A stretch of DNA of 64,000 bases. Origin: Phascolarctobacterium succinatutens. Lineage in GTDB: Bacteria; Bacillota; Clostridia; Christensenellales; CAG-917. Below are positions 5,211 to 61,684 of the stretch, one piece after another. The notes beneath the pieces are model-generated. The model was not told the DNA's origin, searched no databases, and was given only the letters and a program-made list of their open reading frames with translations. Made by a program: the position numbers and the translations under genes. Each line of letters starts with the position of its first letter. The stretch's first letter is position 1. The stretch lies in contig CAVBBF010000001.1 in assembly GCA_963593735.1 (NCBI GenBank), forward strand, positions 9,569 to 73,568, given 5' to 3'.

Positions 5211-5330
5211 AAGCCGATATTGAGATGAAGAACAAGGAAACGCCCCTCTGATAGCAACCCTAATTTACTAAAACGTAAATGAGTTGATAGCAGAGGGGCG
5301 TTGACGATGTTATTCGCTCAATAGCGGCTT
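5211..5330 (+). repeat. Four-helix hairpin repeat (HP), copy 1
   Basis: AAGCCGATATT/GAGATGAAGAACAAGGAA/ACGCCCCTCTG/..CAAC CCTA ATTTAC taaaac GTAAAT GA GTTG../CAGAGGGGCGT/TGACGATGTTATTCGCTC/AATAGCGGCTT. Its last nt is the first nt of the hypA stop codon. Truncated 5' arm copies lie at 5117-5152 and about 5176-5200. Confidence 0.9.
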
Positions 5331-5674
5331 TATTCTACGGCGATTTCTTTGACAAGCACCTCATTCCCTCGTATAAGATAAGTATGTTCACTGCCGCAAT
5401 AGGGGCAGGTCTTGCCATACTCGACGGTGGGGTACTCTTTTTTGCAGTCCTCGCAGTAGGTGACGGCTTTGATAGGCTCGATTTCAAGAGTGCAACCGCG
5501 CAGTAAATCCGTGCGGTTTGCATTCCAGTTCCAACAATCGATGAGTTGATCGTTGACGATTGTAGACACTTCGCCGATTTGCATAACGACTTTTTGGATT
5601 TTGGTTGCCTTGTTTTCTACGGCAACGTCGCGTACCATATCGGCTATGTGAAAAACTACGCCCAATTCGTGCAT
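5330..5674 (-). CDS. hypA: Hydrogenase/urease nickel incorporation protein HypA
   Basis: 114 aa. Starts with MHE, and has a C-terminal zinc site CEDC...CPYC typical of HypA. Lies 9 nt downstream of the 954 aa oxidoreductase gene. Confidence 0.85.
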   Translation of the reverse strand: MHELGVVFHIADMVRDVAVENKATKIQKVVMQIGEVSTIVNDQLIDCWNWNANRTDLLRGCTLEIEPIKAVTYCEDCKKEYPTVEYGKTCPYCGSEHTYLIRGNEVLVKEIAVE

Positions 5675-5683
5675 ATCAACCTC

Positions 5684-8548
5684 TTATTTGTTGGCTTTTT
5701 TTGCAGCCTTTGCCGCTTTGACCGCTTCTTTGTGTTTCTTTTGGGAAGCCTTTTCTTCTGCGGTCTTCTTGCCGAACACGATTCTCATGCCGCGTTTGAA
5801 CGCGTACGGAAGGATTGCTTTGAATTTATCTTCGCTGCGAATCATCGTTGAGCATTCGGGATGTTCTCTGTGGAGATGGATTGCGTCAAATTCGCACTTT
5901 GTGGTGCATACGCCGCATCCGATGCACTTGTTCTCGTCCACGACGCTTGCGCCGCAACCGAGGCAACGACCCGCTTCGATCTTGACTTGCTCTTCGGTGA
6001 GAGTGCCGTGCAAATCTCTGAACGAATGTTTGTCGCCTTCGAGTTCTTTGGCTTCTTGTCTGCCGGCGGTGTCGTAACTGTCGATGACGATGTTGTTCTT
6101 GTCGAGTTCGATGAACTGTCTGCGGTTGCGACCGATGGTCATGCTCGTGCCGGGTTGTACGAAGCGATGGAGAGATACTGCCGCATTCTTGCCCGCTTCG
6201 ATTGCGTCGATTGCGAACTTGGGTCCGCTGTACACGTCGCCGCCGACGAAGATGTCGGGTTCTGCGGTTTGATACGTGAGCGAATCCGCAACGGGGTAAT
6301 TGCCGTGATGGAATTCAACCTTAGTGCCTTTGAGCAAGTCTCCCCAGACAACCGCTTGACCGATTGCGAAGATGACGTGTTGCGCTTCGACGGTGATGGT
6401 GTCGTTCTCGTCGTAAACGGGGCTGAATCTCTTGGTTTGAGGATCGATGACTCTCAAGCACTTCTTGAACACGACCGCCTTGACGGTGCCGTCCTCGTTT
6501 TTGAGGATTTCCTTCGGACCCCAACCGTTGTTGACGGAGATGCCGTCTTCGAGAGTTTCTTCGATTTCGTTCTTGCTTGCGGGCATCGTTTCTCTCGATT
6601 CGAGGCAGTACATACCGACCTCTTCGCTGCCGAAACGAACGGCGGTGCGAGCGCAGTCCACAGCAACGTTGCCGCCGCCGATAACGACTGTCTTGCCGTT
6701 AAGTTTTCTGTCGTGATTTTCGGTTGCGTCGTGCAAGAAGGAAACAGCCATATCCGTTCCGATTGCGTCTTCGCCGGGTACGCCGGGAAGTCTGCCGCCC
6801 TGGCAGCCGATTGCAACGTAGAACGCTTTGTAGCCTTGTTTTCTCAACTCGTCGATGGTGACGTCTTTGCCGACGTTGACGCCTGTCTTGAACTCTACGC
6901 CGAGTTCACGCAAAACGTCGATTTCCGCTTCGATGACATCCTTTTCGAGTTTGTAGGACGGAATACCGTAGGTGAGCATACCGCCGAGTCTTTCGTTCTT
7001 TTCGAACACGGTGGGTTTGTAACCCTTCGTCGCAAGATAGTATGCGCAAGAAAGTCCCGCGGGGCCTGCGCCGATGATCGCTATCTTTTGAGACCATTGC
7101 TTGTCAACGTTGGACGGAATGACGACTTCGGGGACGAATCTCGTTTCCGCGTGCAAATCTTGCTCTGCGACAAACTTCTTGATTGCGTCGATAGACACTG
7201 CCTCGTCAATCGTTCCTCTGGTGCAGGCTGCCTCGCAACGCTTGTTGCAGACGCGACCGCAGATTGCGGGGAACGGGTTGTCCTTCTTGATGAGTTCGAG
7301 AGCCTCTCTGTACTTGCCCTCTTTTGCTTTGCGGATATAACCTTGAACTGCGATGTGCGCAGGGCAAGCCGCTTTGCACGGCGACGTACCCGTTTCGTAG
7401 CAGTTGATACGGTTGTTGTCTCTGTAATCCTCATCCCACTTGTCGGGACCCCAACTGAGGTTGTCGGGAAGTTCGTGCTTGGGATATTTGATTTCGCCTT
7501 GCTTTGTGCAAAGTTTTTGACCGAGTTTGACCGCGCCTGCGGGGCAATACTCAACGCACTTGCCGCAAGCGACGCATTTGTCTTTCTCTACGCGAGCGAC
7601 GTATGCGCTTCTTGACATATTCGGAGTGTTGAAAAGTTGCGACGTACGGAGCGCGTTGCAGATGTTGACATTGCAGTTGCAGATTGCGAAGATTTTGTTC
7701 TCGCCGTCGATGTTGGTGATTTGGTGAACGAAACCGTTCTTTTCGGCATTGCGGAGGATTTGCATAGCCTCGTCGTAGGTGATGTCGCGACCTTTGCCCG
7801 TTTCGCGGCAGTAGTCCGCCATATCGCCGATGCCGATGCACCATTCTTCACAACTGTCGCCGCAGCCTTCGCCGAGTTTGGCTCTGCCATAGCGGCAAGA
7901 GCAGATACCTACGCCGAGATGTCCCTCATACTTCTTGAGCCAGTAGGAAATATGCTCGATGTCCATTGTGCCGTTTTCCATCTCGATTGCTTTTTCGACG
8001 GGGATAACGTGCATACCGATGCCTGCGCCTCCCGGAGGAACCATCGGCGTGACCATCGTCAAGGGAAGATAGGTCATACGCTCGAAGAACATTGCAAGTT
8101 CGGGATGTTCGTCGAGTTGTTGCTTGATCATGTTCGTAAATTCGGCAGAGCCGGGAACGAACATCGGAAGCACGTAGCGACGTTCTCTCTTTGCACCCTT
8201 GATGGGACCGTTCTTGTCATAGTGATTGCCGTAATCGTATTCGAGGATGCCGATGTGGCTCATTTCGTCGAGGATTTTTTGGAAGTCTTCCGCTTTTTTG
8301 TATTGCGGATTGAGTTTCCAAAGTTGCTCGAAGGTGTACGGCGTGCGCAACTTCATTGAAAGCGCGACATCAGCCATTTCGTCGGTCATAATGCAGCGAA
8401 GCCCCCAGTATTCGGGATCGTTGACGGTTACGCCCGCAATTTTGTGGTCGATGCAGTCTGTGATTTTTCTTGCCAGTTTGAGGATTTTCTCACTCGGATT
8501 GGGATCGCCCATAAATTCCGGCTTGAAAGCTTTGCTCATCTCAGCCAT
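5684..8548 (-). CDS. Multidomain Fe-S flavoprotein: Cys-rich N-terminal domain, ferredoxin domains and a GltD-like FAD/NAD(P)H oxidoreductase
   Basis: 954 aa. Dinucleotide fold IAIIGAGPAGLSCAYYL plus GGMLTYGIP, as in the glutamate synthase small chain family. 4Fe-4S motifs CVACGKCVEYCP and CIGCGVCTTKC. N-terminal ~330 aa has clusters CSCRYG...CGDSCEEWC and CNCNVNIC. Lys/Ala-rich C-terminal tail. Confidence 0.8.
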   Translation of the reverse strand: MAEMSKAFKPEFMGDPNPSEKILKLARKITDCIDHKIAGVTVNDPEYWGLRCIMTDEMADVALSMKLRTPYTFEQLWKLNPQYKKAEDFQKILDEMSHIGILEYDYGNHYDKNGPIKGAKRERRYVLPMFVPGSAEFTNMIKQQLDEHPELAMFFERMTYLPLTMVTPMVPPGGAGIGMHVIPVEKAIEMENGTMDIEHISYWLKKYEGHLGVGICSCRYGRAKLGEGCGDSCEEWCIGIGDMADYCRETGKGRDITYDEAMQILRNAEKNGFVHQITNIDGENKIFAICNCNVNICNALRTSQLFNTPNMSRSAYVARVEKDKCVACGKCVEYCPAGAVKLGQKLCTKQGEIKYPKHELPDNLSWGPDKWDEDYRDNNRINCYETGTSPCKAACPAHIAVQGYIRKAKEGKYREALELIKKDNPFPAICGRVCNKRCEAACTRGTIDEAVSIDAIKKFVAEQDLHAETRFVPEVVIPSNVDKQWSQKIAIIGAGPAGLSCAYYLATKGYKPTVFEKNERLGGMLTYGIPSYKLEKDVIEAEIDVLRELGVEFKTGVNVGKDVTIDELRKQGYKAFYVAIGCQGGRLPGVPGEDAIGTDMAVSFLHDATENHDRKLNGKTVVIGGGNVAVDCARTAVRFGSEEVGMYCLESRETMPASKNEIEETLEDGISVNNGWGPKEILKNEDGTVKAVVFKKCLRVIDPQTKRFSPVYDENDTITVEAQHVIFAIGQAVVWGDLLKGTKVEFHHGNYPVADSLTYQTAEPDIFVGGDVYSGPKFAIDAIEAGKNAAVSLHRFVQPGTSMTIGRNRRQFIELDKNNIVIDSYDTAGRQEAKELEGDKHSFRDLHGTLTEEQVKIEAGRCLGCGASVVDENKCIGCGVCTTKCEFDAIHLHREHPECSTMIRSEDKFKAILPYAFKRGMRIVFGKKTAEEKASQKKHKEAVKAAKAAKKANK

Positions 8549-10084: not shown

Positions 10085-10257
10085 AAACTGCGATAAATCG
10101 ATGCATAACGCGAAAGCACCCCTTGAATGGCAACCCTAATTTACAAAGCGTAAATGAGTTGACAGTCAAGGGGTGCTGTAAGGAACGAAGTGACGGAATA
10201 GCGATTGCTACGCTTGCGTCAATCGCGTCCAAAGTTAGGCGCGATTTAGCGCAGTTT
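10085..10257 (+). repeat. HP repeat, copy 2 (variant with a nested ~53 nt hairpin module in the 3' internal loop)
   Basis: S1 AAACTGCGATAAATCG/CGATTTAGCGCAGTTT. GCATAAC:GTTAGGC replaces GAAGAAC:GTTATTC. S2 GCACCCCTTGA/TCAAGGGGTGC. The apex is identical to copy 1. Module H (10178-10230) is inserted where other copies have TGAC-NNN. Ends on the stop codon of the ABC gene. Confidence 0.85.
10178..10230 (+). repeat. Module H (~50 nt hairpin module), copy nested in HP copy 2
   Basis: GTAAGGAACGAAGTGACGGAATAGCGATTG ctacgcttgcgt CAATCGCGTCC. The same module occurs reversed at 57162-57211, and in part at 61143-61170. Confidence 0.8.
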
Positions 10258-13202
10258 TAATCTACGCGGAGAGCGTCAACCACATTCTTGCGCGAAGCCA
10301 TAATCGCCGGAATTATGCCAGAAATTATGGTTAGAAGCAAACTCAGACATACAAGAATGAAGGCGTGAAGCGGATGGAAGTGCAAAAGCGATCCGATGGT
10401 GGTGATTTTCTCGATGATGACGGACAGGATGGGGCAAAGGATATATGTGACGACAATGCCGATGAGCCCGCTCCACAGACCGATGATGGAAGTTTCGGCA
10501 ATAAAGACGTTGCGAATATCCTTTTTGCGTGCGCCAATTGCGCGGAGAATACCGATTTCTCGAGTGCGCTCGACAACCGAGTTTGACGTGATGACTCCGA
10601 TCATAACGGTGGAAACGACAAGGGATATTGCGGCAACGGCTATGAGCATTGCGGATACGAGGTCAAGCGTGCTGCGCATATTGACAAGGAACATTTCGGA
10701 CACGTCGAAGTAGCCGAGATTACCCTTGCCGGACTGTTGCCAAGCGTCGATGTAGTTGCCCGAATTTGTCTTTTGGTTGCTGTCGTTTGGGAAAACGGTG
10801 ATGTAATACGGGCTCTTATCCGCGCCGATTGCGCGCATAAAATACGTGTATTTGAGCGCAGGCGTGTTGGCAACCGTTGCGAGCATCATATTTCCGTCAT
10901 TTATCTCTTTGTTGTCCAAACGAACGCCGAAAACCGTCTTCTTGCTATCGCCGCCGTTGTTTTTGTCAAGGTCCAACTGGCGCTGTGTGAAGGTGCTGTT
11001 CGCCGCGCTTTCGAGAGTGCTTTCGGCAAGCGAGGGTAAAAAGCAAAGCGATGTGCCGACGTATGTGTGTTCCGCATTCTTCTTTGCGCGGATAACGCCC
11101 ACGATTTTGATTTCGTCGGAAGATTCGTCGTACATTTGTTGAAGTTTTTCTTGGGATTCTTCCGAATCGTCATAGCCCCACATCATCTCTTTGCTCTGGT
11201 CTTGAAGAAGGTCGGTCAAACCGCCGCTTCCGTCGCTGCTCGATTCGCTACCCTTGCCGAGACCGAGATTTTCATACGTTCCCCTGTCCTCGTCGTAGGT
11301 GTAATAGGAATCGTTGTCGATGAGTTTGAAAGATTGCCCCAAGAAATATTCGTAAGACACTTTTTCTGTGTCGATTTTGATGGGTTTGCCGTCCTCGTCG
11401 AGTTTGAGAGTGCCGTCCTCGTTCTTTTCGTAAAGTTCGATTCCGAATGCGGAAAGCACCGATTTGCTAATGCTGTTGTCCGTGCCTACGCAGAGCAAAA
11501 TTTCGTTTTTGTTTTGCGGGAATCTGCTTCCCTCGCCGATGAAATCGTAGGAACGCATCATAACGTCTTCGTCCTCAACGAGTTCTTGCCAGTACTTTGC
11601 CTGCAAGCCGTTTTCGCCCAAAACCGTCGTGGCGCACGCCGTCGTGGTGAGCGGTTGCGGCTGTTGCGAAGCGTCCTTGTACACAACGTTGCCGTCTGCG
11701 TCATACGTCTTTCTGACAAGGTTGTATCGCAAGCCGTAAGATATGCTCATCGCCGTGTAATAATCCTTCGGCATCGCCTTCATATATTCGGCAAACTCCT
11801 CGCTCAACGCGTTTTTGGTGACGCCCGTCATAAAGGATTTAACGACGGAGTTGATCAACGTCATCATTGCCGCCGTACTGTTTGAAGTGTTCGAAACCGT
11901 GATTTCGTCGGAGTCGGGATAGAGGCTGGGATCTTCGGACGGTTTTTCCATCATGCTCGTCATCAAATCCATAATGGCGTTGCTGGATACGTTGTATTGA
12001 TAAATGCCGAGAGGAACGCCCGAAAGCATCTCGGTTTCCATCTTGGCAAGATAGATGTTAAATCCGTTGTAGATGGACAAAACGAGCGCAAGACCTATAA
12101 TGCCGATTGCGCCCGCAAAGGACGTAAGCAAAGTGCGGCGTTTTTTGGACACAAGGTTTTTAAGGCTCAGTCCGAACGCCATACCCGCACTCATGGACGT
12201 TGGCTTGAACGCCTTGTCTTTTTTCTTTTTCTTCTTCGTCAGGCTGTTGAGTCCGAGTTTGTCAAACAGTGCTTTCGTTTCCTCGCCGACGTTTCTCATA
12301 GCGCGTTTGCGCTTGCGGTTGGACGTCTTTTTCTGTTTGCCCGTTTCTTCTTCGTTTTGCTCGGTTTGAGTGTTTATCTCTACATTTTGGGATGTTAAAA
12401 CTTCTGTTTTGTCAACTTCGACTTCGGTTACATCGGTTGTGGAATTTTCAAGCGCGCCCGTAAAAGCCTCGATTGTCATCGCTTCTTCGCAAGTTTCTGC
12501 CTGCTCGCAAAACTCGGTTTCGGGGTCGTACGGATTGGTATCCTCGATGAGTTGACCGTCCTTGAATCGGCAAATACGAGTTGCATATTGATAGGCAAGT
12601 TCCGCATTGTGGGTGACCATAATGACAAGACGTTTCTTCGAAATCTCTTGGAGAATGTCCATAACCTGCACGCTCAGTTCGCTGTCAAGCGCGCCCGTCG
12701 GCTCATCGGCAAGAATGATTTTCGGGTCGTTTACAATGGCTCTTGCAATCGCGACGCGCTGCATTTGTCCGCCGCTGAGTTGGTTTGGACGTTTGTCAAT
12801 CTGCTCGTGCATGTTGACTTTGTGAAGCGCGGCAACCGCCTTTGCCCTGCGCTCCTTTTTCTTTTCACCGACAAGGCTCAATGCAAGTTCGACGTTTTCA
12901 AGCACGGAGAGATGAGGAATCAGATTGTAACTTTGAAAGACAAATCCTATGGTTGCGTTGCGATATGCGTCCCAGTGTTCGTCGTCAAATTCCGCCGTGG
13001 AAACGCCGCCGATGACCAAGTCCCCCGAAGTGTATCTGTCAAGACCGCCTATAATGTTGAGCATTGTAGTCTTTCCGCAGCCGCTCGGTCCGAGGATTGC
13101 CACAAATTCGCTTTCGCGGAAATTGAGCGACACCTTTCTCAAAGCGTGTACGGTGGTTGTAGCGGTGGGATAGTCTTTTACTACGTCTTTAAGTTGAAGC
13201 AT
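10257..13202 (-). CDS. Fused ABC transporter ATP-binding/permease protein (MacB/FtsX-like)
   Basis: 981 aa. N-terminal Walker [35 protein letters not shown]. Long extracytoplasmic middle region. C-terminal FtsX-type TM bundle ([16 protein letters not shown]). Confidence 0.85.
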
Positions 13203-14484: not shown

Positions 14485-14524
14485 ATGTTGAATAATCCTT
14501 ATAATATTCGTGCCGCAGGCACGT

Positions 14525-14732
14525 CACCAAGCAGATAATTTGGCGAAACTGTGGCGTGAGGTTTTATCCCTGCTTGAACTGATAGCGCAAATTCTCTGCG
14601 CGGTTAGTGATTGCGAGAACATGTGCGGTTTTTGTCAATCGCCCCAAAGGTTTTCATTTCTATTTATGGGATTCCCACGCTTCGCTCTGAATGACGACGT
14701 GGTCGATTGACTTTGCCGCAACGCCGTTTGAG
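14525..14732 (+). repeat. M3 module, copy 1
   Basis: CACCAAGCAGATAATTTGGCGAAACTG..GCGCGGTTAGTGATTGCGAGAACATGTGCGGTTTTTGTCAATCGCCCCAAAGG..GATTCCCACGCTTCGCTCTGAATGACGACGTGGTCGATTGAC..GCCGCAACGCCGTTTG. Confidence 0.8.
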
Positions 14733-14916
14733 CAATGCAACCCTAGCGTACAAATGTACGTGAGTTGTCAACTCGTGGCTCTGACAAAGTTATTCGCTTA
14801 CAACTTTTGACAAGAGCGCAATAAATGAATAAAGAACAAGAAAACGCCCATCGAATGGCAATCAAATATACAAAAAGTGAGCGTGTCTAATCCCACTCTT
14901 TATTTATTACGAAAGC

Positions 14917-15031
14917 CGCGCCAAATAGATGAAGAACGAGAAAGAGCCACCCGAACCGCAACCCTAATTTACTGATAGTAAATGAGTTGTCGGGCGGGTG
15001 GCTCTGACAAAGTTATTCGTTATTTGGCACG
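14917..15031 (+). repeat. HP repeat, copy 3
   Basis: S1 CGCGCCAAATA/TATTTGGCACG, S2 AGAGCCACCC/GGGTGGCTCT, apex CAAC CCTA ATTTAC tgata GTAAAT GA GTTG. The 3' arm contains the stop and last 3 codons of the M28 peptidase gene. Partial copies lie at 14738-14794 and 14823-14862. Confidence 0.9.
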
Positions 15032-16339
15032 ACTTTCGTCGATTTTGGAAATGACGCGCAACACCACGTCCAACCCCAATCCCACCGTGTCGGGCGAGAA
15101 ACGCTCGGGTACGTCGCGATAGGTGTGATAGTAATCGCTCATGACGGGATTTTGTGCGGCGAATGTGATGGATTTTACGCCGGATTTTTGGAAAGGAGTG
15201 GAATCGCAACCGCCGACGGGGTTTGCGATGTCGCCGGGGTTTTTGATGCCCGCTTCCCTCATAGACTCTTTGAACATGCGCTCCAAATCTTTGTCGAAGC
15301 GAGGGCAAAGCCAACTGTCGCCGTGAATGACTTCAAAGTGATCCGCATCGGCGATGGAATCGATGTTGATGTGATAGGCGTTGTCGAACATACCGTCGTC
15401 TTTGTGCCTGCGAGTGAAGGCAATGGAGCCGCGAAGACCGGATTCCTCCGCGCCGATATTGCAGTCGACGATTCGGCAATTTTTTGGCATTTTGTCGGGG
15501 TTTTCCTTGTAATACTTCACGACTTGATATGCGATGGAAACGCCGGTTGCGTTGTCCATTGCGCCGGGGGAAGCGATTGCTTCCGTCTTTTCGTTGTACA
15601 TCGTTAGCAAGAATGCGCAGACGATGACGACGGGCGACGAATACAAAATAATTTGCGAGAGAATGCTATATGCTTTTGCAACGTTCATATACGTTTCAAC
15701 GCCCAACGAATCCGAGCCGTATTGCAGTATCATTATGAGAATGAGAGCGACTGCGCTGATGAGCGTCACAACTCCCACCGCGATCGCGCCGAGACCCAAG
15801 CGAAGCACGACGCCGACAAAGCCGAGTTTGTGCTGTGACGCGCTGAGTTTGAGCGTCCAACTCGTGTCGGTGTGACCCGAAAGGAAGATTGTATAATCGT
15901 ATTTTCCGTCTTCGGGGAGGAGTTCGGCATATGTATTGTGCGACACTTTGTGCTTGAAGCACCAGTCGAAGCAGGTGTTGTACTTGAACACGCTGACAAT
16001 GAGCCAAATCCAAGTGAACGCCATATACATCGTGCATACGAAGTGGGTTGCAAGTCCTGCATACGTCGAGATGTGCGCGAGCATTGTCGCAATGACGGTG
16101 AGGATGCATCCGATTATGCCTGCCCATCCTGCGTAAGGCAAACCGCCTATGGACGCATGGGGCGCAAAGACAAAACTCTCGGTGACGGGGTTGAGCCCGA
16201 TTTCTTTGAGTTTGTCCGACATATACTCGTGGTATTTCTTCTCGTTGTTCGAGCCGGGAAGGCGCGGGCCTATCTCGTTTGCGGCGTATTCCACCATTTC
16301 ATAGGCTTCGTCGCCATACTTTTTGAGTTCTTCTCTCAT
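15020..16339 (-). CDS. M28 family metallopeptidase with an internal multi-TM segment
   Basis: 439 aa. Metal-ligand-like blocks GAMDNATG and GAEESGLRGS. Hydrophobic central region. Confidence 0.7.
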   Translation of the reverse strand: MREELKKYGDEAYEMVEYAANEIGPRLPGSNNEKKYHEYMSDKLKEIGLNPVTESFVFAPHASIGGLPYAGWAGIIGCILTVIATMLAHISTYAGLATHFVCTMYMAFTWIWLIVSVFKYNTCFDWCFKHKVSHNTYAELLPEDGKYDYTIFLSGHTDTSWTLKLSASQHKLGFVGVVLRLGLGAIAVGVVTLISAVALILIMILQYGSDSLGVETYMNVAKAYSILSQIILYSSPVVIVCAFLLTMYNEKTEAIASPGAMDNATGVSIAYQVVKYYKENPDKMPKNCRIVDCNIGAEESGLRGSIAFTRRHKDDGMFDNAYHINIDSIADADHFEVIHGDSWLCPRFDKDLERMFKESMREAGIKNPGDIANPVGGCDSTPFQKSGVKSITFAAQNPVMSDYYHTYRDVPERFSPDTVGLGLDVVLRVISKIDESRAK

Positions 16340-27541: not shown

Positions 27542-27881
27542 CACAAAAATATAACAAGTGCATATCCGCTTGATTTTGCCACAAACCTTATCCAAAGAAC
27601 AATCGGATAACGCGAATAATGCACCTGTTACCATAAGGTAAGGCACCCGATTGTTCTCTATTCAGTTTGTGGCGACAATAGAATATCACCAATCGGGCAA
27701 ATAGTCAATATATCCAAAATCTCAAACCATTACCGAAAACAAAAAGAATTCGCTTTATAAACAGTTTTACGTTTAGAAAGCACATTTATCTTGATTTCTG
27801 CATAACAAGCGGTTAAAAACTTCGATATTTAGATGAAGAACAAGGAAAAGCCCCTTGTTCGGCAACCCTAATGTGTAAGTT

Positions 27882-28008
27882 GTAAAAACTCGCCATTGAG
27901 ATGAAGAACAAGAAAGAGCCTCACAATCAGGCAGGAGCGTACATTGACGTACGTGACTGTTTGATTGAGAGGCTCTGCCGCCGTTATTCGCTCAATGGCG
28001 AGTTTTAC
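27882..28008 (+). repeat. HP repeat, copy 4
   Basis: S1 GTAAAAACTCGCCATTGAG/CTCAATGGCGAGTTTTAC, S2 AGAGCCTC/GAGGCTCT plus CAATCA/TGATTG, apex CAG GA GCGTAC attgac GTACGT GA CTG (symmetric GA/GA loop). The 3' arm covers the stop codon of the 43 aa ORF. A 5'-half copy lies at 27823-27881. Confidence 0.9.
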
Positions 28009-31949: not shown

Positions 31950-32018
31950 AGAATAAAAAGACCTCGATAAATCGATGCATAACGCGAAAGCACCCCTTGA
32001 ATGACAACCCTAATTATT

Positions 32019-32144
32019 AAAACCGCGATATTGAGATGAAGAGCAAGGAAACGCCCTTTTGCGAACCCGCCTAGCGTACTAAATCGTACGTGACGGGTGA
32101 ACAAAAGGGCGTTGACACAGTTATTCGCTCAATAGCGCGGTTTT
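32019..32144 (+). repeat. HP repeat, copy 5
   Basis: S1 AAAACCGCGATATTGAG/CTCAATAGCGCGGTTTT, S2 ACGCCCTTTTG/CAAAAGGGCGT, apex ACCCG CCTA GCGTAC taaatc GTACGT GA CGGGT. Its end overlaps the phosphoesterase stop codon. A 5'-half variant copy lies at 31965-32016. Confidence 0.9.
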
Positions 32145-37189: not shown

Positions 37190-37315
37190 AAAACCGCGAT
37201 ATTTGGATGAAGAATGCGAAAGGCACGGCTTGAATCAAAACCCAGTGTACATAGGCGTACACGATTTTGAGACAAGCCGTGCCTGACAAAATTATTCGCC
37301 AAATAGCGCGGTTTT
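37190..37315 (+). repeat. HP repeat, copy 6
   Basis: S1 AAAACCGCGATATTTGG/CCAAATAGCGCGGTTTT, S2 AGGCACGGCTTG/CAAGCCGTGCCT (12 bp perfect), apex CAAAA CCCA GTGTAC ataggc GTACAC GA TTTTG. Its end overlaps the SDR stop codon. Confidence 0.9.
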
Positions 37316-43078: not shown

Positions 43079-43094
43079 CCGCATCGCAGATGCG

Positions 43095-47554: not shown

Positions 47555-47658
47555 TATTAACTAAACACTTTTATTGTGCCAAACAGATGAAGAACAAGGA
47601 AACACCCTTTTGCAAATCCGCCCAGCGTACTTATGCGTACGCTTTTTTATTACCAATA

Positions 47659-47787
47659 CTTTTATGGCATAAGTGAGATGAATGACGCGAAAAAACCCTG
47701 ATTTTGACAACCCTAATTTACTAATCGTAAATGAGTTGGCAAAATCAGGGCGTTGACAAAGTCAGTCGCTCACTTATGCCATAAAAG
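47659..47787 (+). repeat. HP repeat, copy 7 (orphan, not next to a stop codon)
   Basis: S1 is 19 bp perfect, CTTTTATGGCATAAGTGAG/CTCACTTATGCCATAAAAG. GAATGAC:GTCAGTC replaces GAAGAAC:GTTATTC. S2 CCCTGATTTT/AAAATCAGGG. The apex is as in copy 1. A truncated copy lies at 47577-47641. Confidence 0.9.
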
Positions 47788-54585: not shown

Positions 54586-54641
54586 AAATTAATAATGAAT
54601 AATTAATAATTAATAATTGCGGGTGGGCTTTGCCCACACCC
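54586..54641 (+). repeat. A/T box plus GC hairpin, copy 4
   Basis: AAATTAATAATGAATAATTAATAATTAATAATT (internally permuted) is followed by GCGGGTGGGC ttt GCCCACACCC. Lies ~20 nt upstream of the -35 of the rpmH promoter on the opposite strand. Confidence 0.9.
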
Positions 54642-54791
54642 AAACGAACACTTATTCGTAGCCTACTTATTAACGGTATGTGCTAATTCGCAGACGAGAT
54701 GAAAACCGCCGTCCGCGAACTTGCAGAGTGGACTTTCTAACGAACACTTATTCGAAGTTTACTTATAAACGGTATGTGTTTATTCGAAGAC

Positions 54792-55054
54792 GGAACACGA
54801 GCCGCAAGGCGGCGAGCCTATGAGCGCCGAGCTGGACGATTTGTACGAGAATGCGTGGCATTCCGTTGCGAAGCCGCCACGCAGGCGAAGTGGCATAATG
54901 AGTGAAATGCGCCTATCTATGCGAGTGCCGATTTCCCCTCTTGCGAACGATGTGCAATCTTGTAGAGAATTGACGTTTGTTTGAGCAATAGGGGAAAGCC
55001 CGAAGGGAAGGGGTGATGTGTGATTTAAAGTACACGCCGTACACTCTTGTAGAG
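54792..55054 (+). repeat. LE core, copy 4
   Basis: GGAACACGAGCCGCAAGGCGGCGAGCCTATGAGCGCCGAGCTGGACGATTTGTACGAG..GTGGCATAATGAGTGAAATGCGCCTATCTATGCGAGTGCCG..CAATAGGGGAAAGCCCGAAGGGAAGGGGTGATGTG..CTTGTAGAG. Confidence 0.85.
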
Positions 55055-55217
55055 AAAGAAAAACGCCCTTCTTTTTTCGAGAGGGGTGTTAACACAGTTA
55101 TTCGCTCAATAGCGACATTACATATGTGAGTGCGCCAAACAGATGTATAACAAGAAAGACACGACTTGAATCAAAACCCAGTGTACATAGTCGTACACGA
55201 TTACACAAAAACAATGT

Positions 55218-55336
55218 AAGCCGATATTGAGATGAAGAACAAGGAAACGCCCTCTTGCGAACCCGCCCAGCGTACTATTCGTACGTGACGGGTGAACAAA
55301 AGGGCGTTGACGATGTTATTCGCTCAATAGCGGCTT
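55218..55336 (+). repeat. HP repeat, copy 8
   Basis: S1 AAGCCGATATTGAG/CTCAATAGCGGCTT, S2 ACGCCCTCTTG/CAAAAGGGCGT (one C:A), apex ACCCG CCCA GCGTAC tattc GTACGT GA CGGGT. Its end overlaps the argS stop codon. Partial copies lie at 55051-55115 and 55128-55202. Confidence 0.9.
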
Positions 55337-57017
55337 ACATTTCTTCGGGAGCGGAAATGCCGAGCAACCCCAACCCACACTTTATCACGTTGCCCACCGC
55401 TTTGGTGAGAGCAAGACGTGCGTTGCGAGTGGGTGCGTCATCGACGAGTATGCGATGATCGATGTAGAAACGATTGAACTTTTCGGCAAGATCGACGATG
55501 TGACGAGTGACGTAGCAGGGCTCGCGCAGTTTGGCGGCTTGGCGCACGGAATCGCCGAAAGCAATGACGGATTTTATGACGTCGTAACCCTCGTCGGAAG
55601 TTATTGCGGACAAGTCGACGTTTGCATAATCGATGTCGCCGCCCTTGCGAAGCGCGCTTGCGCAACGAGCATAGGTATATTGAACGTAAGGTGCGGTTTC
55701 GCCGTCGAAATTAAGCACCTTGTCGTATGAAAACACGATGTCTTTTATACGGTTGTTCCAAAGGGACGAGAACACCACCGCGCCTACGCCGACGCTCTCT
55801 GCGATTTCGTCTTTGTTTGGTGTGTTCGGATTCTTTTCCTCGATGATTTTTCTTGCTTTTTCAACCGCCTTGTCCAGCACTTCTTGAAGCCAAATTACGC
55901 GCCCCGAACGCGTTGACATAGAGCCGTCTTCCATAGAAACCATGCCGTATGCGACGTGCTCCATATCGTCTGCACCTGCAAAATCCATAAGTTTAAGCAC
56001 CTGAAACAGTTGCTTAAAGTGCAGATTCTGCTGATATGCGACAACGTAAAGGCATTTGTAGAAGTCGTACGTTTTCTTGCGATAATACGCCGCGGCGATG
56101 TCGCGCGTTGCATACAAAGTCGCGCCGTCCGCCTTGACCAAAAGGCACGGCGGCATATCGTATTCGTCGAGGTTTACAACCTGTGCGCCGTCGCTTTCGA
56201 CAAGCAAGTTTTTCTCTCTCAATATGTCGAGGCACGCCTCCATTTTGTCGTTGTAGAAACTCTCGCCGGCATAACTGTCGAACTTGATTTTCAAGCGATC
56301 GTAAATCTTTCCGACGGCGGTCATCGTAACCTTTTTGAATACGTCGAAATACTTTGTCGCTTCCTCGTCGCCGTCCTCGATACGCTTGAACCAAGCGCGA
56401 GCCTCGTCGTCCATTTCGGGATGTTCTTCCGCCTCTTTGTGATAGCGCACGTAAAGTTTGTTGAGGAAGTATTCGTCGTTTTCCGCCACTTCCTCGAGAG
56501 AAGACCATTTGCGAGTTGCGACGATGAGTTTTCCGAATTGCGTACCCCAGTCGCCGAGATGGTTTATGCCGACGACATTGTAGCCGAGATGTTCAAAAAT
56601 GCGATAAAGTGCGCCGCCGATGACAGTCGTACCGAGATGTCCGATGTGAAAAGGCTTTGCGATGTTGACCGAACTATAATCGATGCAAATGGTTTTGCCT
56701 GCGCCCTCGTCGCTCGCGCCGACGTTTTCGTCCGTCGCGCTTTCGAGAGCCTTTTTCGCAAGCGTATTTCTGTCAAAGAAAATGTTGAGATAGCCGCCCA
56801 CAACCTCGACTTTTTCCACGAAATCGAGTGCCTGAACATAAGGCAAAAGTTTGTTTGCGATAACGGGCGGCGCAAGGCGCATTGTGCGTGCAAATTTGAA
56901 GCACGGCAAACAAATATCGCCCATTTTCGCTTCTTTCGGCGTTTCGAGAGCCGATTCGACGTCTTGCACCGAAAGCCCTTCGACGGCAAGCGCATTTGTT
57001 AATTCTTTTTCAAACAT
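55335..57017 (-). CDS. argS: Arginine--tRNA ligase
   Basis: 560 aa. SVNIAKPFHIGHLGTT (HIGH region). C-terminal anticodon-binding DALR-like region ending ISAPEEM. Confidence 0.95.
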   Translation of the reverse strand: MFEKELTNALAVEGLSVQDVESALETPKEAKMGDICLPCFKFARTMRLAPPVIANKLLPYVQALDFVEKVEVVGGYLNIFFDRNTLAKKALESATDENVGASDEGAGKTICIDYSSVNIAKPFHIGHLGTTVIGGALYRIFEHLGYNVVGINHLGDWGTQFGKLIVATRKWSSLEEVAENDEYFLNKLYVRYHKEAEEHPEMDDEARAWFKRIEDGDEEATKYFDVFKKVTMTAVGKIYDRLKIKFDSYAGESFYNDKMEACLDILREKNLLVESDGAQVVNLDEYDMPPCLLVKADGATLYATRDIAAAYYRKKTYDFYKCLYVVAYQQNLHFKQLFQVLKLMDFAGADDMEHVAYGMVSMEDGSMSTRSGRVIWLQEVLDKAVEKARKIIEEKNPNTPNKDEIAESVGVGAVVFSSLWNNRIKDIVFSYDKVLNFDGETAPYVQYTYARCASALRKGGDIDYANVDLSAITSDEGYDVIKSVIAFGDSVRQAAKLREPCYVTRHIVDLAEKFNRFYIDHRILVDDAPTRNARLALTKAVGNVIKCGLGLLGISAPEEM

Positions 57018-57035
57018 AGTTACTCCTATTTTATT

Positions 57036-57352
57036 CCTCTACAAAAGTTTGACGGCGTGAACTTTAAAATCACACATCACCCCTTCCCTTCGGGCTTTCC
57101 CCTATTGCTCAAACGAACGTCATTTCTCTGTCAGATTACACATCGTTCGCAAGAGATGGTAGGACGCGATTGACTTCGTAACAATCGCTATTCCGTCACT
57201 GCGTTCCTTACGGCACTCACATAGATAGGGGCATTTCTCTCATTATGCCACTGCGCTTTGTGCGCCAGGCAGTGGCCAACGGACGGCGCAGTCGCTTGTA
57301 CTATTCGTCAAGTTCGGCGCTCATATGCGAGCCGCCGTTGCGGCTCGTGTTC
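57036..57352 (-). repeat. LE core, copy 5 (reverse orientation, carries nested module H)
   Basis: Reverse complement of the copy 3 subfamily. Module H (57162-57211) is inserted between ..CGCAAGAGATGGTA and GGCACTCACATAGATAGG. The TTGTAGAG end lies 19 nt from the argS start codon. Confidence 0.85.
57162..57211 (-). repeat. Module H, copy nested in LE core copy 5
   Basis: GGACGCGATTGAC ttcgtaa CAATCGCTATTCCGTCACTGCGTTCCTTAC is the reverse complement of the 10178-10230 module, with a different hairpin loop. Confidence 0.8.
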
Positions 57353-57420
57353 CGTCTACGAATTAGCACATACCGTTAATAAGTACGCTTCGAATGAGTG
57401 TCCGTTTTAAGCACACTTTT

Positions 57421-57545
57421 TTAAGTGCGATATTGAGATGCAGAGCAAGGAAGATACTTTCGCACGGCAACCCTAATTTACTATGCGTAAATGAGTTGAC
57501 GGGCGAAGGTGTCTGACGAAGTTATTCGCCGAATAGTGCGCTTAA
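57421..57545 (+). repeat. HP repeat, copy 9 (tandem with copy 10)
   Basis: S1 TTAAGTGCGATATTGAG/CCGAATAGTGCGCTTAA (imperfect), S2 AGATACTTTCGC/GCGAAGGTGTCT (two G:T), apex CAAC CCTA ATTTAC tatgc GTAAAT GA GTTG. Confidence 0.85.
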
Positions 57546-57548
57546 TTT

Positions 57549-57668
57549 GAGTGCGATATTTGGATGAAGAACAAGGAAGATGCGATTTTTGAACAACGAG
57601 CGTACTTAGGCGTACGTGACTTGTGAAAAAATCGTATCTGACGAAGTTATTCGCCAAATAGCACGCTC
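57549..57668 (+). repeat. HP repeat, copy 10
   Basis: S1 GTGCGATATTTGG/CCAAATAGCAC, S2 AGATGCGATTTTT/AAAAATCGTATCT (one G:T), apex ACAA C GA GCGTAC ttaggc GTACGT GA C TTGT. Ends at the ychF stop codon (57667-57669). Confidence 0.85.
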
Positions 57669-58749
57669 AAACGTTGATGCGGAACAAAACCACATCATTA
57701 TCCTGCATCACATAATCCTTCCCCTCGCTGCGTACTTTGCCGCGCTCTTTGGCGACGTTGAAGGAGCCGCATTCGAGAAGGGTTTGATAATCGACAATTT
57801 CGGCACGAATGAAACCGCGCTCGAAGTCGCTGTGAATTTTGCCGGCGGCTTGGGGGGCTTTGGTGCCTTTGACGATGGTCCAAGCACGCGTTTCTTTTTC
57901 ACCGGCGGTGAGATAACTGATGAGCCCCAAAAGTTTGTAAGACGCTTTGACGAGGCGGTCGAGTCCGCTCTCTTTAAGCCCGTAATCTTCCATAAACATT
58001 GCGCGGTCGTCGTCGGAAAGTTCGCTCAAATCTTCTTCGAGTTTGGCGCAAAGCACGATTGCTTCGGTGTTTTCCTCTTTGGCGATACTCTCGACTTCCT
58101 CGGTATACGCATTACCGTTTATGCCCGCTTCGTCGGTGTTTGCAACGTAGATGACGGGTTTGGACGTGAGCAAAAATTGCTCGTCAACAAAGCGTTTGAA
58201 GTCCTCGTCCATATCGAGATTGCGAAGGGGCTTGCCGCTTTCGAGCCACTTTTGCATAACAACGAGGCGGTCGATGTCCTCTTGATATTTTTTGTCCGCT
58301 TTCACCTTGACTTGCGCCGAAGCCATACGGCGTTCGAGGGTTTCCATATCGGCAAAAATAAGTTCGAAATTGATTGTTTCGATGTCTCTTTGCGGATTGA
58401 CCGAACCGTCGACGTGCGTTATGTTCGCGTCGTCGAAACAGCGAACAACGTGTACGATTGCGTCCACTTCCCTTATATGCGAAAGAAATTTGTTGCCGAG
58501 TCCTTCGCCTTTGCTTGCGCCCTTGACAAGACCCGCGATATCCACGAATTCAAGCGAAGTCGGGGTGATTTTTTTGCTGTCGTAAAGAGCGGCAAGTTTT
58601 TCGAGTCTTTCGTCGGGAACGGCAACAACACCTACGTTAGGCTCGATCGTGCAGAACGGATAATTCGCCGCTTGCGCGCCCGCCTTTGTGATTGCGTTGA
58701 AAAGCGTACTCTTGCCCACGTTTGGCAAACCTACGACACCGAGTTTCAT
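57667..58749 (-). CDS. ychF: Redox-regulated ribosome-binding ATPase YchF
   Basis: ATG at 58749 (MKLGVVGLPNVGKSTLFNA) with a GAGGT RBS. The upstream part of the ORF-track ORF is non-coding read-through. 360 aa. Confidence 0.95.
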   Translation of the reverse strand: MKLGVVGLPNVGKSTLFNAITKAGAQAANYPFCTIEPNVGVVAVPDERLEKLAALYDSKKITPTSLEFVDIAGLVKGASKGEGLGNKFLSHIREVDAIVHVVRCFDDANITHVDGSVNPQRDIETINFELIFADMETLERRMASAQVKVKADKKYQEDIDRLVVMQKWLESGKPLRNLDMDEDFKRFVDEQFLLTSKPVIYVANTDEAGINGNAYTEEVESIAKEENTEAIVLCAKLEEDLSELSDDDRAMFMEDYGLKESGLDRLVKASYKLLGLISYLTAGEKETRAWTIVKGTKAPQAAGKIHSDFERGFIRAEIVDYQTLLECGSFNVAKERGKVRSEGKDYVMQDNDVVLFRINV

Positions 58750-58860
58750 ATTTCTACCTCTTGCACGTTCTCGCGTGCGAATTTCTTTAATACAATATTT
58801 TAGTATAGACGAAAATACAAATCGTGTAAAGGGAAAACGAAAACAAGGAGTAAAAACAAT

Positions 58861-59691
58861 ATGGAAATATGGGAAGCGTTGGCGCTCGGTTTGGCGCAAG
58901 GGTTGAGCGAGTTTCTGCCGATATCGTCGTCGGGACATCTGTTGATTTTGGAAAAATTCGGAATAGGACAAGAAAACTTGTTCTTCAACATAATGTTGCA
59001 CATCGGCACGCTTTTTGCCGTGCTTATCGCTTTGCGCAAAACTTGGATTCCGCTTTTGCTTTTTCCTTTTTCGAAAAAGAAAAAATCGCAATGCGGCAAT
59101 CTCGAAATCCAAACCGTTTTCGGCGGACTGTCCGCAGGCAAAATCGACGGCTACGTCGTGCTTGCGTGCCTGCCCACCGTTGCGCTCGCATTCGTTTTCA
59201 AACTGCTTGCGCCGTCCCTTCTCGACGGCAAACTTTTGGGTTGCGGTTTTGTGTTGACCGCCGTGCTTTTGTATCTCGGCGAAAACTTCAAACCGACAAA
59301 ATCGACACTTCTTACACCCAAAACGAGTATATTAACAGGCGTTTTGCAAGGTATCGCGGTTTTACCCGGTGTGTCGAGAAGCGGCGCTACGATATCCGCG
59401 CTGACCCTTCAAGCCGTTGACAAAAAGGCGGCAACAACCTTTTCTTTTCTGCTGTCAATTCCGATAATTATAGGCTCTGCTCTTTACGAAAGCCTCGATT
59501 TAATCACGGGAAAAGCAACTCTTTCAATCTCTGCTTCAGCCGTTGTCGTGGGCGTGGTCGCCGCGTTTTTGTCGGGACTTGCCGCAATAAAATTCTTCCT
59601 TAAACTCATCGAAAAACACTCTATGACAGGCTTTATCGTATACACTCTTTTGCTCGGAACAGCGGTGAGTATCTATCCGTTTTTCGTATAA
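58861..59691 (+). CDS. uppP: Undecaprenyl-diphosphate phosphatase
   Basis: SEFLPISSSGHL motif. 276 aa polytopic membrane protein. Confidence 0.9.
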   Translation: MEIWEALALGLAQGLSEFLPISSSGHLLILEKFGIGQENLFFNIMLHIGTLFAVLIALRKTWIPLLLFPFSKKKKSQCGNLEIQTVFGGLSAGKIDGYVVLACLPTVALAFVFKLLAPSLLDGKLLGCGFVLTAVLLYLGENFKPTKSTLLTPKTSILTGVLQGIAVLPGVSRSGATISALTLQAVDKKAATTFSFLLSIPIIIGSALYESLDLITGKATLSISASAVVVGVVAAFLSGLAAIKFFLKLIEKHSMTGFIVYTLLLGTAVSIYPFFV

Positions 59692-61049: not shown

Positions 61050-61340
61050 GCTTCCCCCTTCCTCACGTGTTTCCCCCACCGCCGTTCCCCCTCTGCATAC
61101 TTTGAGGGAACCCACGGTGTCCGCTTCGCGTGGGGCAACACTGACGCGATTGACTTCGTAGCAATCGCTAGTTCGTTGCGCGCAACGAACGGCAGACGGG
61201 CTGTTGGCAATACAAATCGGCTGAAAGCCGTGCCACCGTCCTTTGTGTGCCAGCTACGCACCCAAACGGCACAGTCGGACGGTACTAATCGTCGAGCTTC
61301 GACGCTCGCTTTTCTCGCCGCCGTTGCGGCTCGCGTTCCG
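61050..61340 (-). repeat. LE core, copy 6 (reverse orientation, diverged)
   Basis: Shares CTTCCCCCTTCCTCACGTGTTTCCCC.ACCGCCGTTCCCCCTCTGCATA.TTTGAGGGAACCCACG with copy 2, and ..CGCCGCCGTTGCGGCTCG.GTTCC with all copies. Contains a module H fragment (61143-61170) and a perfect 20 nt palindrome (61171-61190). Confidence 0.75.
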
Positions 61341-61439
61341 TCTTCGAATATACACATATCGTTTACAAAACAGACTGTGTGAGATAAAGAACACGAAAAC
61401 GCCCCTTTGCGATTCGCTCGGCGTTTGACAAGCAGTGCT

Positions 61440-61542
61440 AAATCGATGCATAACGCGAAAGCACCCCTTGCATGACAACCCTAATTTACTAAATCGTAAA
61501 TGAGTTGACAGGCGGGTGTCTCTGCCGCAGTTATTCGCGATT
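61440..61542 (+). repeat. HP repeat, copy 11 (chimeric: variant 5' arm, standard 3' arm)
   Basis: The 5' arm AAATCGATGCATAACGCGAAAGCACCCC matches copy 2. The apex is CAAC CCTA ATTTAC taaatc GTAAAT GA GTTG. The 3' arm is ..CTGCCGCAGTTATTCGCGATT. S2 is only partly complementary. A truncated copy lies at 61366-61437. Confidence 0.75.
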
Positions 61543-61556
61543 CCTTATTGACTTCA

Positions 61557-61684
61557 TCAAACAGTCTGTGTGAGATAAAGAACACGAAAACGCCCCTTTG
61601 ATAGCAATCCTAACGTACTTAGGCGTACGTGAATTGATAGCAAAGGAGCGTTGACGCAGTTGTTTGCTCACACAGGCTGTTTGA
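61557..61684 (+). repeat. HP repeat, copy 12
   Basis: S1 TCAAACAGTCTGTGTGAG/CTCACACAGGCTGTTTGA (one T:G), S2 ACGCCCCTTTG/CAAAGGAGCGT (one C:A), apex CAAT CCTA ACGTAC ttaggc GTACGT GA ATTG. The 3' arm is the stop plus last 5 codons of the 61668-62453 lipoprotein gene. Confidence 0.9.

Follow-up and report, generated by a model that had tools for sequence, protein, structure and literature searches.

REP, BIME and REPIN sequences are imperfect palindromes that occur in high copy number outside genes, where transcription units end at their 3′ side. They form hairpins of about 100 nt with conserved stem irregularities and with compensatory changes in their less conserved parts (PMC3116915, PMC8266576), and they occur in mosaic and tandem arrangements. 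Inverted DUS/USS pairs in the terminators of Neisseria and Pasteurellaceae are a second type, in which a repeat is embedded in the gene-end hairpin (PMC1852404). At quasipalindromes, template switching copies one inverted-repeat arm onto the other; it perfects and extends inverted repeats and can give "compensatory" changes in one step (PMC7202029, PMC8604942, PMC8794818). In this study, a family of hairpin repeats of about 125 bases was analyzed in a 64,000-nt stretch (the window) of contig CAVBBF010000001.1 from an assembly labelled Phascolarctobacterium succinatutens. The orientation in which the copies read on the + strand of the window is called the + form. The family is real, and it is apparently undescribed. 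It consists of a portable core inside a hairpin whose outer stem is formed by the stop-codon region of the adjacent gene and its mirror image.

The hairpin family showed the general traits of REP/REPIN sequences, being a high-copy extragenic palindrome with a long hairpin, compensatory changes, and mosaic and tandem copies. It differed from them in several respects. GTAG was present in no conserved column of 124 copies. Loops and irregular helices were conserved and stems were variable, which is the reverse of REPINs. The orientation was fixed to the gene, the basal stem was made from the stop-codon region, the host was a Firmicutes-type clade, and RAYT was not seen in the window and about 830 kb of flanking sequence. 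As in terminator-associated repeats, A/T tracts and a GC clamp surrounded the repeat, and bidirectional terminator activity is probable. Correia, ERIC and RUP are further terminator-associated or terminator-targeting elements, and group IIC introns and IS1397 target hairpins. In contrast to such elements, the conserved core was much larger and structured, and no association of terminal inverted repeats with a transposase was seen. Direct target-site duplications were also not found, as the length distribution of abutting direct repeats equalled the control, and therefore the family is not a usual miniature inverted-repeat transposable element. It is neither an uptake signal like DUS/USS nor an intron. 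Template-switch mutagenesis accounts for the mirrored stop codons and coding bases described below. However, it is a mechanism of mutation and not an element family, no dispersed repeat has been described as propagating by it, and the conserved asymmetries of this family would tend to be lost under it.

The preliminary description of this DNA, made from the sequence alone, had reported 12 full and at least nine truncated copies of a single repeat family, all full copies sharing one architecture with conserved loops and covarying stems. A covariance model was built from a structure-blind MAFFT alignment of 11 of the 12 full copies. It found all 12 in the window, 11 of them at 81.6–138.6 bits, with no comparable match elsewhere in the window. 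Nine truncated copies were located, and every copy, full or truncated, was on the + strand. The 5′ motif GAGATGAAGAACAAGGAAA occurred 12 times with up to three mismatches, always on the + strand, compared with 0.02 expected occurrences. Each full copy was predicted to form the long hairpin described earlier, with folding energies of −29 to −73 kcal/mol. The single family, its common architecture with irregular conserved loops, and the strong covariation of its stems were thereby borne out, as was each further detail of the description that was checked.

The hairpin comprises the outer stem (S1), two inner stems (S2 and S3) and an apical stem (S4). The 11 window copies gave a consensus of 47 pairs, with double (compensatory) changes at 34 of them. 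The covariance-model and structural-alignment check suggested earlier was run beyond the window and gave the same picture. In 124 distinct copies from 23 assemblies, standard pairs filled 96.1% of the cells, and both sides had changed at 41 of the 47 pairs. The covariation score of these copies was 0.598, compared with 0.158 after shuffling (0/500) and at most 0.125 in controls with slid partners.

Two near-invariant irregular modules were found across the 124 copies. The basal module was GAG-A-TGAA-G-AAC paired with GTT-A-TTCG-CTC, with a bulged A, a G.A mismatch and a T.G pair that only one of the 124 copies lacked. Its GAAGAAC:GTTATTC helix covaried yet kept one internal mismatch, as had been noticed, and this mismatch is purine-purine. 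A purine-rich internal loop of 6 × 8 nt followed directly after the AAC/GTT helix, with AAGGAA (variants AAGAAA and GCGAAA) opposite TGAC/TGCC-RMA. The variants on the two sides were linked: AAGGAA occurred with TGAC, and AAGAAA with TGCC. This pattern is compatible with non-canonical G.A or A.C contacts. The apical module was composed of CCYA, NNNTAC, a loop of 5–6 nt, GTANNN and GA. The conserved blocks of the 124 copies were GAGATGAAGAAC, GTTATTCGCTC and CCYA..TAC..GTA..GA. S2, S3 and the first half of S4 varied in sequence, yet the spacing of the modules was fixed. The two modules point to a putative nucleic acid–protein recognition system.

What the copies shared was a core of roughly 100 nt, with the 5′ motif at one end and the 3′ motif at the other. 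Cores at unrelated loci of a single genome were 93–100% identical, and their outer stems were unrelated. Two pairs of cores, L017/L031 and L065/L071, were 100% identical (L-numbers denote loci from the sampled assemblies). S1 had been described as a part of the repeat, but it is the stop-codon region of the gene plus its mirror image. The gene-side arm was the gene's own 3′ end, comprising the stop codon and 0–14 coding nucleotides, often with an A-tract and a GC clamp. The far arm was an inverted copy of the gene-side arm, so the flanks of the core were inverted copies of each other. No conserved tetranucleotide preceded the core on the gene side, where CTA, TGA, CCA, TCA and others were found. 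By our own tally, about 87% of cases had pairing that continued further than the stop codon, compared with a chance expectation of 25%.

The mirrored arm followed the coding sequence between orthologs. In hypA orthologs, GAA TAA was found with a left arm GAATAA, and GAT TAA (L089) with GATTAA. In ychF orthologs, TGA in the window was found with TTTGAG, and TAA (L015) with TTTAAG. In a protein family ending in ...SRIEL*, 13 coding bases were mirrored in three species. At L014, the gene end was altered and the left arm was not updated. The mirrored C-termini of ArgRS (...EEM*) and YchF (...RINV*) are presumably native. The family is a natural case of a hairpin basal stem that co-evolves with coding sequence and stop codons.

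The interiors of the copies formed 43 clusters at 90% similarity, corresponding to about 40 variant lineages. The largest clusters held 20, 19 and 16 copies, each in 6–11 assemblies. Window copies had partners 91–97% identical at non-orthologous sites in other species. At orthologous sites, elements were 64–79% identical while the flanking genes were 89–94% identical, because a different variant occupied the site. The extent of exchange varied, covering the interior only or the GC clamp too, and both arms were always exchanged together. Old gene-distal left halves were stacked outside the current full copy, often with the site's own left arm (three at L022; also L029 and window positions 5106, 27812, 31960 and 61368). 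Among about 17 half-copies, nine ended right past CCCTAA(T/C), two bases inside the apical stem. Tandem arrays contained up to four copies (L072), and chimeras were found at window position 61429 and at L105:1665. The variant at an orthologous site was thus replaced faster than the neighbouring genes diverged, and cores are actively copied between loci at present. The stem differences lie between old variant lineages and do not reflect the drift of fixed copies.

The preliminary description had read the structure as the signature of a selected RNA or single-stranded DNA (ssDNA) fold and not of recently amplified copies. Selection on the fold is supported by the near-constant length, the two invariant modules with their asymmetries, and the 91–97% identity of variants between species. 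The exclusion of recent amplification did not stand, given the near-identical cores at different loci. Covariation alone is also no proof of an RNA or ssDNA function, because template switching can maintain the complementarity of palindrome arms as well (PMC8794818, PMC7202029). This is a caution for covariation-based RNA discovery: a "compensatory" signal can largely stem from DNA-level arm copying and old variant lineages.

The position of the copies relative to genes was not random. For about three quarters of the copies, a convergent open reading frame (ORF) had its stop codon, mostly TAA, close to the right end of the + form, which lay −23 to +10 nt from it. Copies at about +125 from the stop were distal members of tandems. 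In the window, nine of the 12 full copies abutted − strand stops, namely those of hypA, an ABC transporter gene, an M28-type peptidase gene, a 43-aa ORF, a phosphoesterase gene, an SDR gene, argS, ychF and ORF 61668–62453. The others were two distal tandem members and one solitary copy (47661). The uniform + orientation in the window results from the copies following − strand genes. At L062, two oppositely oriented copies 1.2 kb apart each followed their own gene, which ruled out replication strand as the cause of the uniform orientation. The genes flanked by copies were housekeeping genes (leuS, argS, ychF, hypA) with synteny conserved across species. The gene content of the window was that of a housekeeping chromosome region, with leuS, serS, aspS/asnS-type ligase genes, argS, ychF and a rnpA-yidC-jag-mnmE-mnmG cluster. 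The hairpin repeats mark most transcription-unit ends of the window.

One element-free gene, 23526–24383, was followed at 24384–24400 by TAATTAAAAACCGCTAATC, which resembles the usual gene-side arm TAAAACCGCGCTATTGAG and may be the footprint of a lost copy. Its orthologs at L024, L069 and L115 had a full element at that position. In the metagenome scan of orthologs of this gene, L115 carried the element, and L113, L114 and L124 carried ordinary terminators instead; no empty site in that scan was close enough to define insertion boundaries.

The spread of the family was investigated by a pattern scan with one genome per species. The family was present at no fewer than 109 loci in more than 20 species of metagenome-assembled genomes (MAGs), almost all of them uncultured human-gut Clostridia. 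Carriers were labelled at NCBI as Christensenella sp. UBA6880, UBA7588, UBA767 and UBA1242; Firmicutes bacterium CAG:238, CAG:475 and TM09-10; and UMGS1042, UMGS1043, UMGS1170, UMGS1331 and UMGS1366 (UMGS Clostridiales). One carrier was a complete MAG chromosome of 1.65 Mb (CP091723.1). A protein of the window had an identical counterpart in two NCBI MAGs, GCA_963609315.1 and GCA_963643295.1. The covariance model gave 125 high-scoring copies in the listed loci and the window, and their length was nearly always 123–127 nt. As far as sampled, the host range is a clade of uncultured gut Clostridia. Divergent lineages retained the basal module only, in UBA1242 (L045, L057) and in contigs binned as Bacteroidales (L093, L094). 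The Bacteroidales-binned hairpins, at L093:1570-1689 and L094:7554-7673, kept only GAGATGAAGAACAAGG ... AGTTATTCGCTC around a different interior; they reflect either mis-binning or a wider host range. If the rest of the genome is as densely populated as the window, with its 12 full copies in 64 kb, the family would make up about 2% of genomes of about 1.6 Mb in a prevalent uncultured human-gut lineage. The family could serve as a strain-typing marker and as a source of compact portable terminators.

The family had not been matched to a named RNA family before, and this was confirmed. In Rfam 15, the hairpin copies had no match at the gathering score, and at E values up to 10 the three copies searched (5208, 57421 and 57547) gave only chance-level miRNA and snoRNA hits; the sole gathering-score hit in the window, Gut-1, was elsewhere than the copies. 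No paper describing the family was found in the literature on repeats, terminators, integrons and Christensenellales/Clostridia. In a viral contig collection, a single chance match was found, and it had no hairpin. Likenesses to hammerhead, C/D-box or K-turn RNAs and to rolling-circle ssoA (CS-6 TAGCGT) were considered and rejected for misfits in motif order or position and had no Rfam support.

Most outer stems looked like bidirectional terminators, in the order TAAAA, GC clamp, core, GC clamp and TTTTA. A T-run of at least three followed the distal GC clamp in 89 of 121 copies and was present in the opposite direction in 78 of 121. Another canonical terminator was found at 3 of 70 element-bearing gene ends, compared with 60 of 317 other ends, with noisy gene calls. 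Orthologs without the element carried an ordinary terminator. As in intrinsic terminators, the stem base was at the stop codon and a T tract followed the clamp, and termination is predicted on this basis. The hairpin, with about 47 pairs and 125 nt, was not of the short intrinsic type (stem of about 5–14 bp, loop of 3–8 nt). A simple terminator scan of the window showed no enrichment over shuffles and was therefore uninformative.

The two strands of the element differed in predicted stability. Of the 124 copies, 90 under RNA parameters and 105 under DNA parameters folded more stably as the + form, which is antisense to the gene. On average, the strands differed by about 3.5 kcal/mol (Wilcoxon p = 1e-7 for RNA and 2e-17 for DNA). 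In the variable stems, G.T exceeded A.C on the + form strand (152 vs 89); deamination of the non-transcribed strand would yield the opposite bias. The conserved mismatches were purine-purine on the same strand. By these folding models, the structurally favoured strand is the template strand of transcription, like the "bottom strand" of attC sites.

A search for a partner protein (RAYT/TnpA-REP, integrase) had been proposed in the preliminary description. The candidate did not emerge in the window or its flanks. Among about 40 ORFs of the window, no transposase, recombinase, integrase or reverse transcriptase was found with Pfam and NCBIfam. The flanks, about 830 kb in all, likewise yielded neither a transposase or RAYT nor an integrase, although a single-copy gene elsewhere in the genome could be missed. 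The phmmer search of 6211 ORFs from these flanks and the window, with hand-entered IS200 TnpA, E. coli RAYT and IntI1 queries, gave no homolog. All-against-all clustering of 2117 flank ORFs gave no multi-copy ORF, and at the sampled loci no split copy enclosed a gene. The gene island between the two inverted copies at L062 held only an XRE-like helix-turn-helix protein and a 174-aa protein.

We tentatively favour the reading that the family is a new REP/BIME-like, terminator-embedded, portable palindromic module that a putative protein recognises and that spreads through recombination or template switching. At the RNA level, the 125-nt hairpin from stop codon to T-run would act as a terminator or a protective 3′ hairpin, often in both directions. 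At the DNA level, cores would be copied between gene ends and over resident copies, by recombination or by replication template switching between copies. Hairpins forming on the antisense strand of the gene may stimulate this copying. Fold-back synthesis would then rebuild the distal arm from the gene end, and complementary arms, a mirrored stop codon, leftover distal half-copies, tandems and chimeras would result. The two invariant modules would presumably form the binding site of the putative protein; the invariance of the asymmetric modules implies selection, probably through such a protein. Several points weigh against this reading. The hairpin is about ten times longer than a canonical terminator stem, and the T-run is absent from about a quarter of the copies. 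The better-folding strand is antisense to the gene, which is not explained by a function in the mRNA. With only about 24 nt, the homology blocks are shorter than expected if RecA-type conversion were to account for the rate observed. By itself, template switching explains neither the landing of the core 0–8 nt past stop codons nor, the basal stem being symmetric, the fixed orientation. It also leaves unexplained the invariance of the irregular modules across deep divergence, which suggests a dedicated enzyme. The searches for such an enzyme covered the window and its sampled flanks and used hand-entered RAYT, IS200 and IntI query sequences.

An enzyme is central to the alternative that the family is a non-autonomous ssDNA transposon of REPIN or PATE type, served by one trans-acting enzyme (HUH/Y1 or other) encoded elsewhere. 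This is unlikely, although several observations fit it. The enzyme would recognise both modules and target gene-end hairpins, and terminator activity would be a by-product. The invariant irregular helices contain mismatches that look required, as in the REP of E. coli, where TnpA-REP activity depends on the stem bulge (PMC8266576), and the long hairpin, high copy number and compensatory changes are as in REPINs (PMC3116915). Cores were 100% identical at unrelated sites, and DNA parameters favoured the folding of one strand for 105 of the 124 copies. The common end of half-copies past CCCTAA(T/C) (9 of about 17) and the crossover at the apex are what a nick site would give, but these breakpoints are also explicable by TAA microhomology with the TAAAAC of the next copy. 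The conserved columns contain no GTAG guide motif, and no Y1, RAYT or IS200 homolog was found in about 830 kb of flanks with hand-entered queries, by which a single-copy gene is easily missed. IS200/IS605-derived PATE has two separate subterminal hairpins, inserts 3′ of a fixed tetra- or pentanucleotide and depends on a Y1 TnpA, whereas the copies here are single continuous hairpins with no conserved tetranucleotide before the core, and no TnpA was found in the window or flanks. The replaced sequences had variable extents, like conversion tracts. Orientation tracked the gene and not the replication strand. For co-directional genes, the folded strand is the leading-strand template, and IS200/IS605 elements behave oppositely. 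Slightly less likely still is a new kind of mobile DNA, a structured core of about 100 nt that is copied next to the stop codon and builds a terminal inverted repeat by fold-back of the gene's 3′ end, so that the target duplication is inverted and not direct. A putative enzyme would act on the antisense folded strand, and the copies would form chromosome-wide, attC-like portable terminators. If real, mirrored-stem insertion would add to the known ways in which repeats propagate and might give a clue to the origin of attC-like sites.

That the family is a structured RNA acting in cis and served by a dedicated protein is improbable. Such an RNA would be the 3′-untranslated-region form or an antisense transcript with the better-folding, purine-rich form; it would control mRNA 3′-end formation, stability or antisense transcription, and DNA copying would be a mere route of spread. 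The fixed orientation, the start at the stop codon, the constant length and the two modules agree with such an RNA, as do the interior variants conserved between species, the invariant U.G pair and the excess of G.U over A.C (152 to 89) on one strand. Tandem G.A pairs are possible in the internal loop, with the linked changes AAGGAA/TGAC and AAGAAA/TGCC. However, these features equally fit folded ssDNA, and the RNA-like strand is antisense to the only transcript certain to exist. No antisense promoter was identified, no relative was found in Rfam, and the mirrored coding bases and stacked half-copies are DNA-level phenomena. Like an attC site, each copy comes directly behind an ORF, always in the same orientation and with the stop codon inside or beside it, folds better on the strand antisense to the ORF, has invariant AAC...GTT triplets around an unpaired central spacer, and keeps structure while sequence varies, with a length inside the attC range. 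A minor subfamily, in gene orientation GCCTAAC...GTTATGC, comes near to RYYYAAC/GTTRRRY. That the copies are folded bottom-strand substrates of an integron-type tyrosine recombinase, scattered behind chromosomal genes, is nevertheless very doubtful. The main subfamily reads GAATAAC/GTTCTTC in gene sense or GAAGAAC/GTTATTC and does not follow the core-site consensus. S2 has no conserved extrahelical bases, and an extra outer stem of 18–29 bp lies outside the "R box", which is not seen in attC sites. The flanked genes are syntenic housekeeping genes and not cassettes, no cassette array was present, and no intI was found in the window or flanks. Functionless palindromic junk, that is, an ancestral hairpin drifting without selection and homogenised by template switching and gene conversion, is disfavoured and just as doubtful as the attC reading. 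Template switching can keep arms complementary without selection (PMC8794818), and many copies are decayed, truncated or chimeric. Against this, asymmetric loops and mismatches that template switching would erase were invariant across MAGs whose housekeeping genes differ by 20–30%. In addition, length was constant, cores were better conserved between species than flanking genes, and position and orientation were non-random.

The copies of the hairpin family and the other repeats and features of the window are listed in the table.

Table. Hairpin copies and neighbouring features of the 64,000-nt window (bits, covariance-model score except where Rfam is named).
Feature	Position	Strand	Score (bits)	Context
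Left (gene-distal) half-copy	5106..5152	+		Own left arm GAATAAGG; absent at orthologous loci L023 and L061
Full copy	5208..5333	+	138.6	Fold −57.5 kcal/mol; right arm holds the stop (5330-5332) and last codon of hypA (5330-5674, −); stem GAATAAAGCCG/CGGCTTTATTC, GAA TAA included
Full copy, GCATAAC/GTTAGGC subfamily	10085..10257	+	56	Interrupted at 10180-10229; abuts the stop (10257-10259) of ABC transporter gene 10257-13202 (−)
Right half-copy, apex to 3′ motif	14737..14804	+	19.4	Left half replaced by the end of repeat family C
Left half-copy	14816..14871	+
Full copy	14912..15036	+	112.9	Right arm encloses the stop (15020-15022) of M28-peptidase-like ORF 15020-16339 (−)
Left half-copy, ends just past CCCTAAT	27812..27881	+		Stacked distal to full copy 27884; also found in orthologs L022 and L076
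Full copy	27884..28007	+	114.9	Right end contains the stop of 43-aa Cys-rich ORF 28005-28136 (−)
Left half-copy, GCATAAC subfamily, ends at CCCTAATT	31960..32015	+		Stacked distal to full copy 32019
Full copy	32019..32144	+	132.1	Basal stem includes the stop (32143-32145) of metallophosphoesterase-like ORF 32143-33621 (−)
Full copy	37190..37315	+	127.6	Basal stem includes the stop (37314-37316) of SDR gene 37314-38036 (−)
Left half with apical hairpin, without right arm	47568..47642	+
Full copy, lone exception	47661..47785	+	117.4	Convergent intergenic region; nearest stops about 480-530 nt away; sole window copy standing alone
Copy with internal deletion, reduced to S2 arms and 3′ motif	55058..55116	+
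Copy without right S2 arm and 3′ motif	55126..55202	+
Full copy	55215..55339	+	123.7	argS (55335-57017, −) has its last codon (ATG) and stop (55335-55337) mirrored by basal stem AATGTAAGCCG/CGGCTTACATT
Full copy, gene-distal half of tandem pair	57421..57545	+	115.2	Stop at +122
Full copy, gene-proximal half of tandem pair	57547..57670	+	116.2	Basal stem includes the stop (57667-57669, TGA) of ychF (57667-59112, −); left arm TTTGAG is its mirror
Left half-copy	61368..61429	+		Left arm AAACAGACTGTGTGAG is that of full copy 61558
Chimeric copy	61429..61554	+	81.6	Fold just −29.4 kcal/mol; left half, GCATAAC/GCACCCCTTG variant; right half, GGGTGTCTC/GTTATTCGC variant
Full copy	61558..61683	+	123	ORF 61668-62453 (−) runs 15 nt into the right arm; its stop is the TGA of core TGAG
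Second repeat family	31629-31956, 47224-47556, 54739-55062	+
Second repeat family	36994-37183, 57029-57419, 61230-61370	−
Repeat family C	14515-14738, 42587-42817, 42824-42930	+
Repeat family C	31388-31625	−
AT-rich repeat	31165-31280, 54587-54710, 63877-63995
AT-rich repeat TTAATAATGAATAATTAATAATTG	about 14275
AT-rich repeat TTAATAATGAATAATTAATAATTG, reversed	about 36865
~50-nt hairpin repeat	10180-10229
~50-nt hairpin repeat	about 57150-57200, 61140-61180	−
Low-GC island	24461-27584
Gut-1 RNA	43004-43081	−	55.3 (Rfam)	RF01706

The copy at 10085 was matched only by its inner half because an unrelated 50-nt hairpin repeat was inserted in it. In the chimeric copy, the S2 arms were non-complementary and the crossover lay within the shared apex. 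The inserted repeat (..GACGGAATAGCGATTGCTACGCTTGCGTCAATCGCGTC) was also present at L062, L089 and L006. Its site within the hairpin copies is the unpaired internal loop, of which it occupies the 3′ side in copy 10085, L062 and L089, whereas in L006 it is on the 5′ side. Either the hairpin family may be the target of a second small element, or the two may form a composite variant that spreads as a unit.

Three other repeats accompanied the hairpin family. The second repeat family, of about 330–400 nt with 73–83% identity, was always just distal to a hairpin element, in either orientation; it had no Rfam hit, and its fold was unremarkable (z = −0.7). Repeat family C, of about 230 nt with 82–94% identity, ends in GCAACGCCGTTTGAGCAA and was also present at L017 and L032 (fold z = −2.4). 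In the AT-rich repeat, TTAATAATGAATAATTAATAATTG comes first, then a GGGTGGGCTTTGCCCACACCC hairpin and then units of the AACGAACACTTATTCGAAG type; this repeat lay directly after + strand stops (e.g., 31177).

The low-GC island (3.4 kb, about 40% GC) encoded two proteins, one of 201 aa and an adhesin-like one of 836 aa with leucine-rich repeats. The island was absent at the orthologous loci L022, L105 and L113, and it was inserted between a terminator and the half-copy stack. The product of ORF 28005–28136 was Lys/Cys-rich and contained MAKSETKQTKRSGACHCDEPKTSKTTKSKDCGCEKSRETKNCK; the end of this ORF, ...TGCAAGTAA, was conserved in L022, L105 and L076. To our knowledge, Gut-1 RNA has been described solely from gut metagenomes, without a host. 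In the window, it was located 14 nt past the stop (43095) of an Asn/Asp-tRNA-ligase-like gene. Gut-1 was thus found here in a Christensenellales-like MAG, at a gene 3′ end beside copies of repeat family C.

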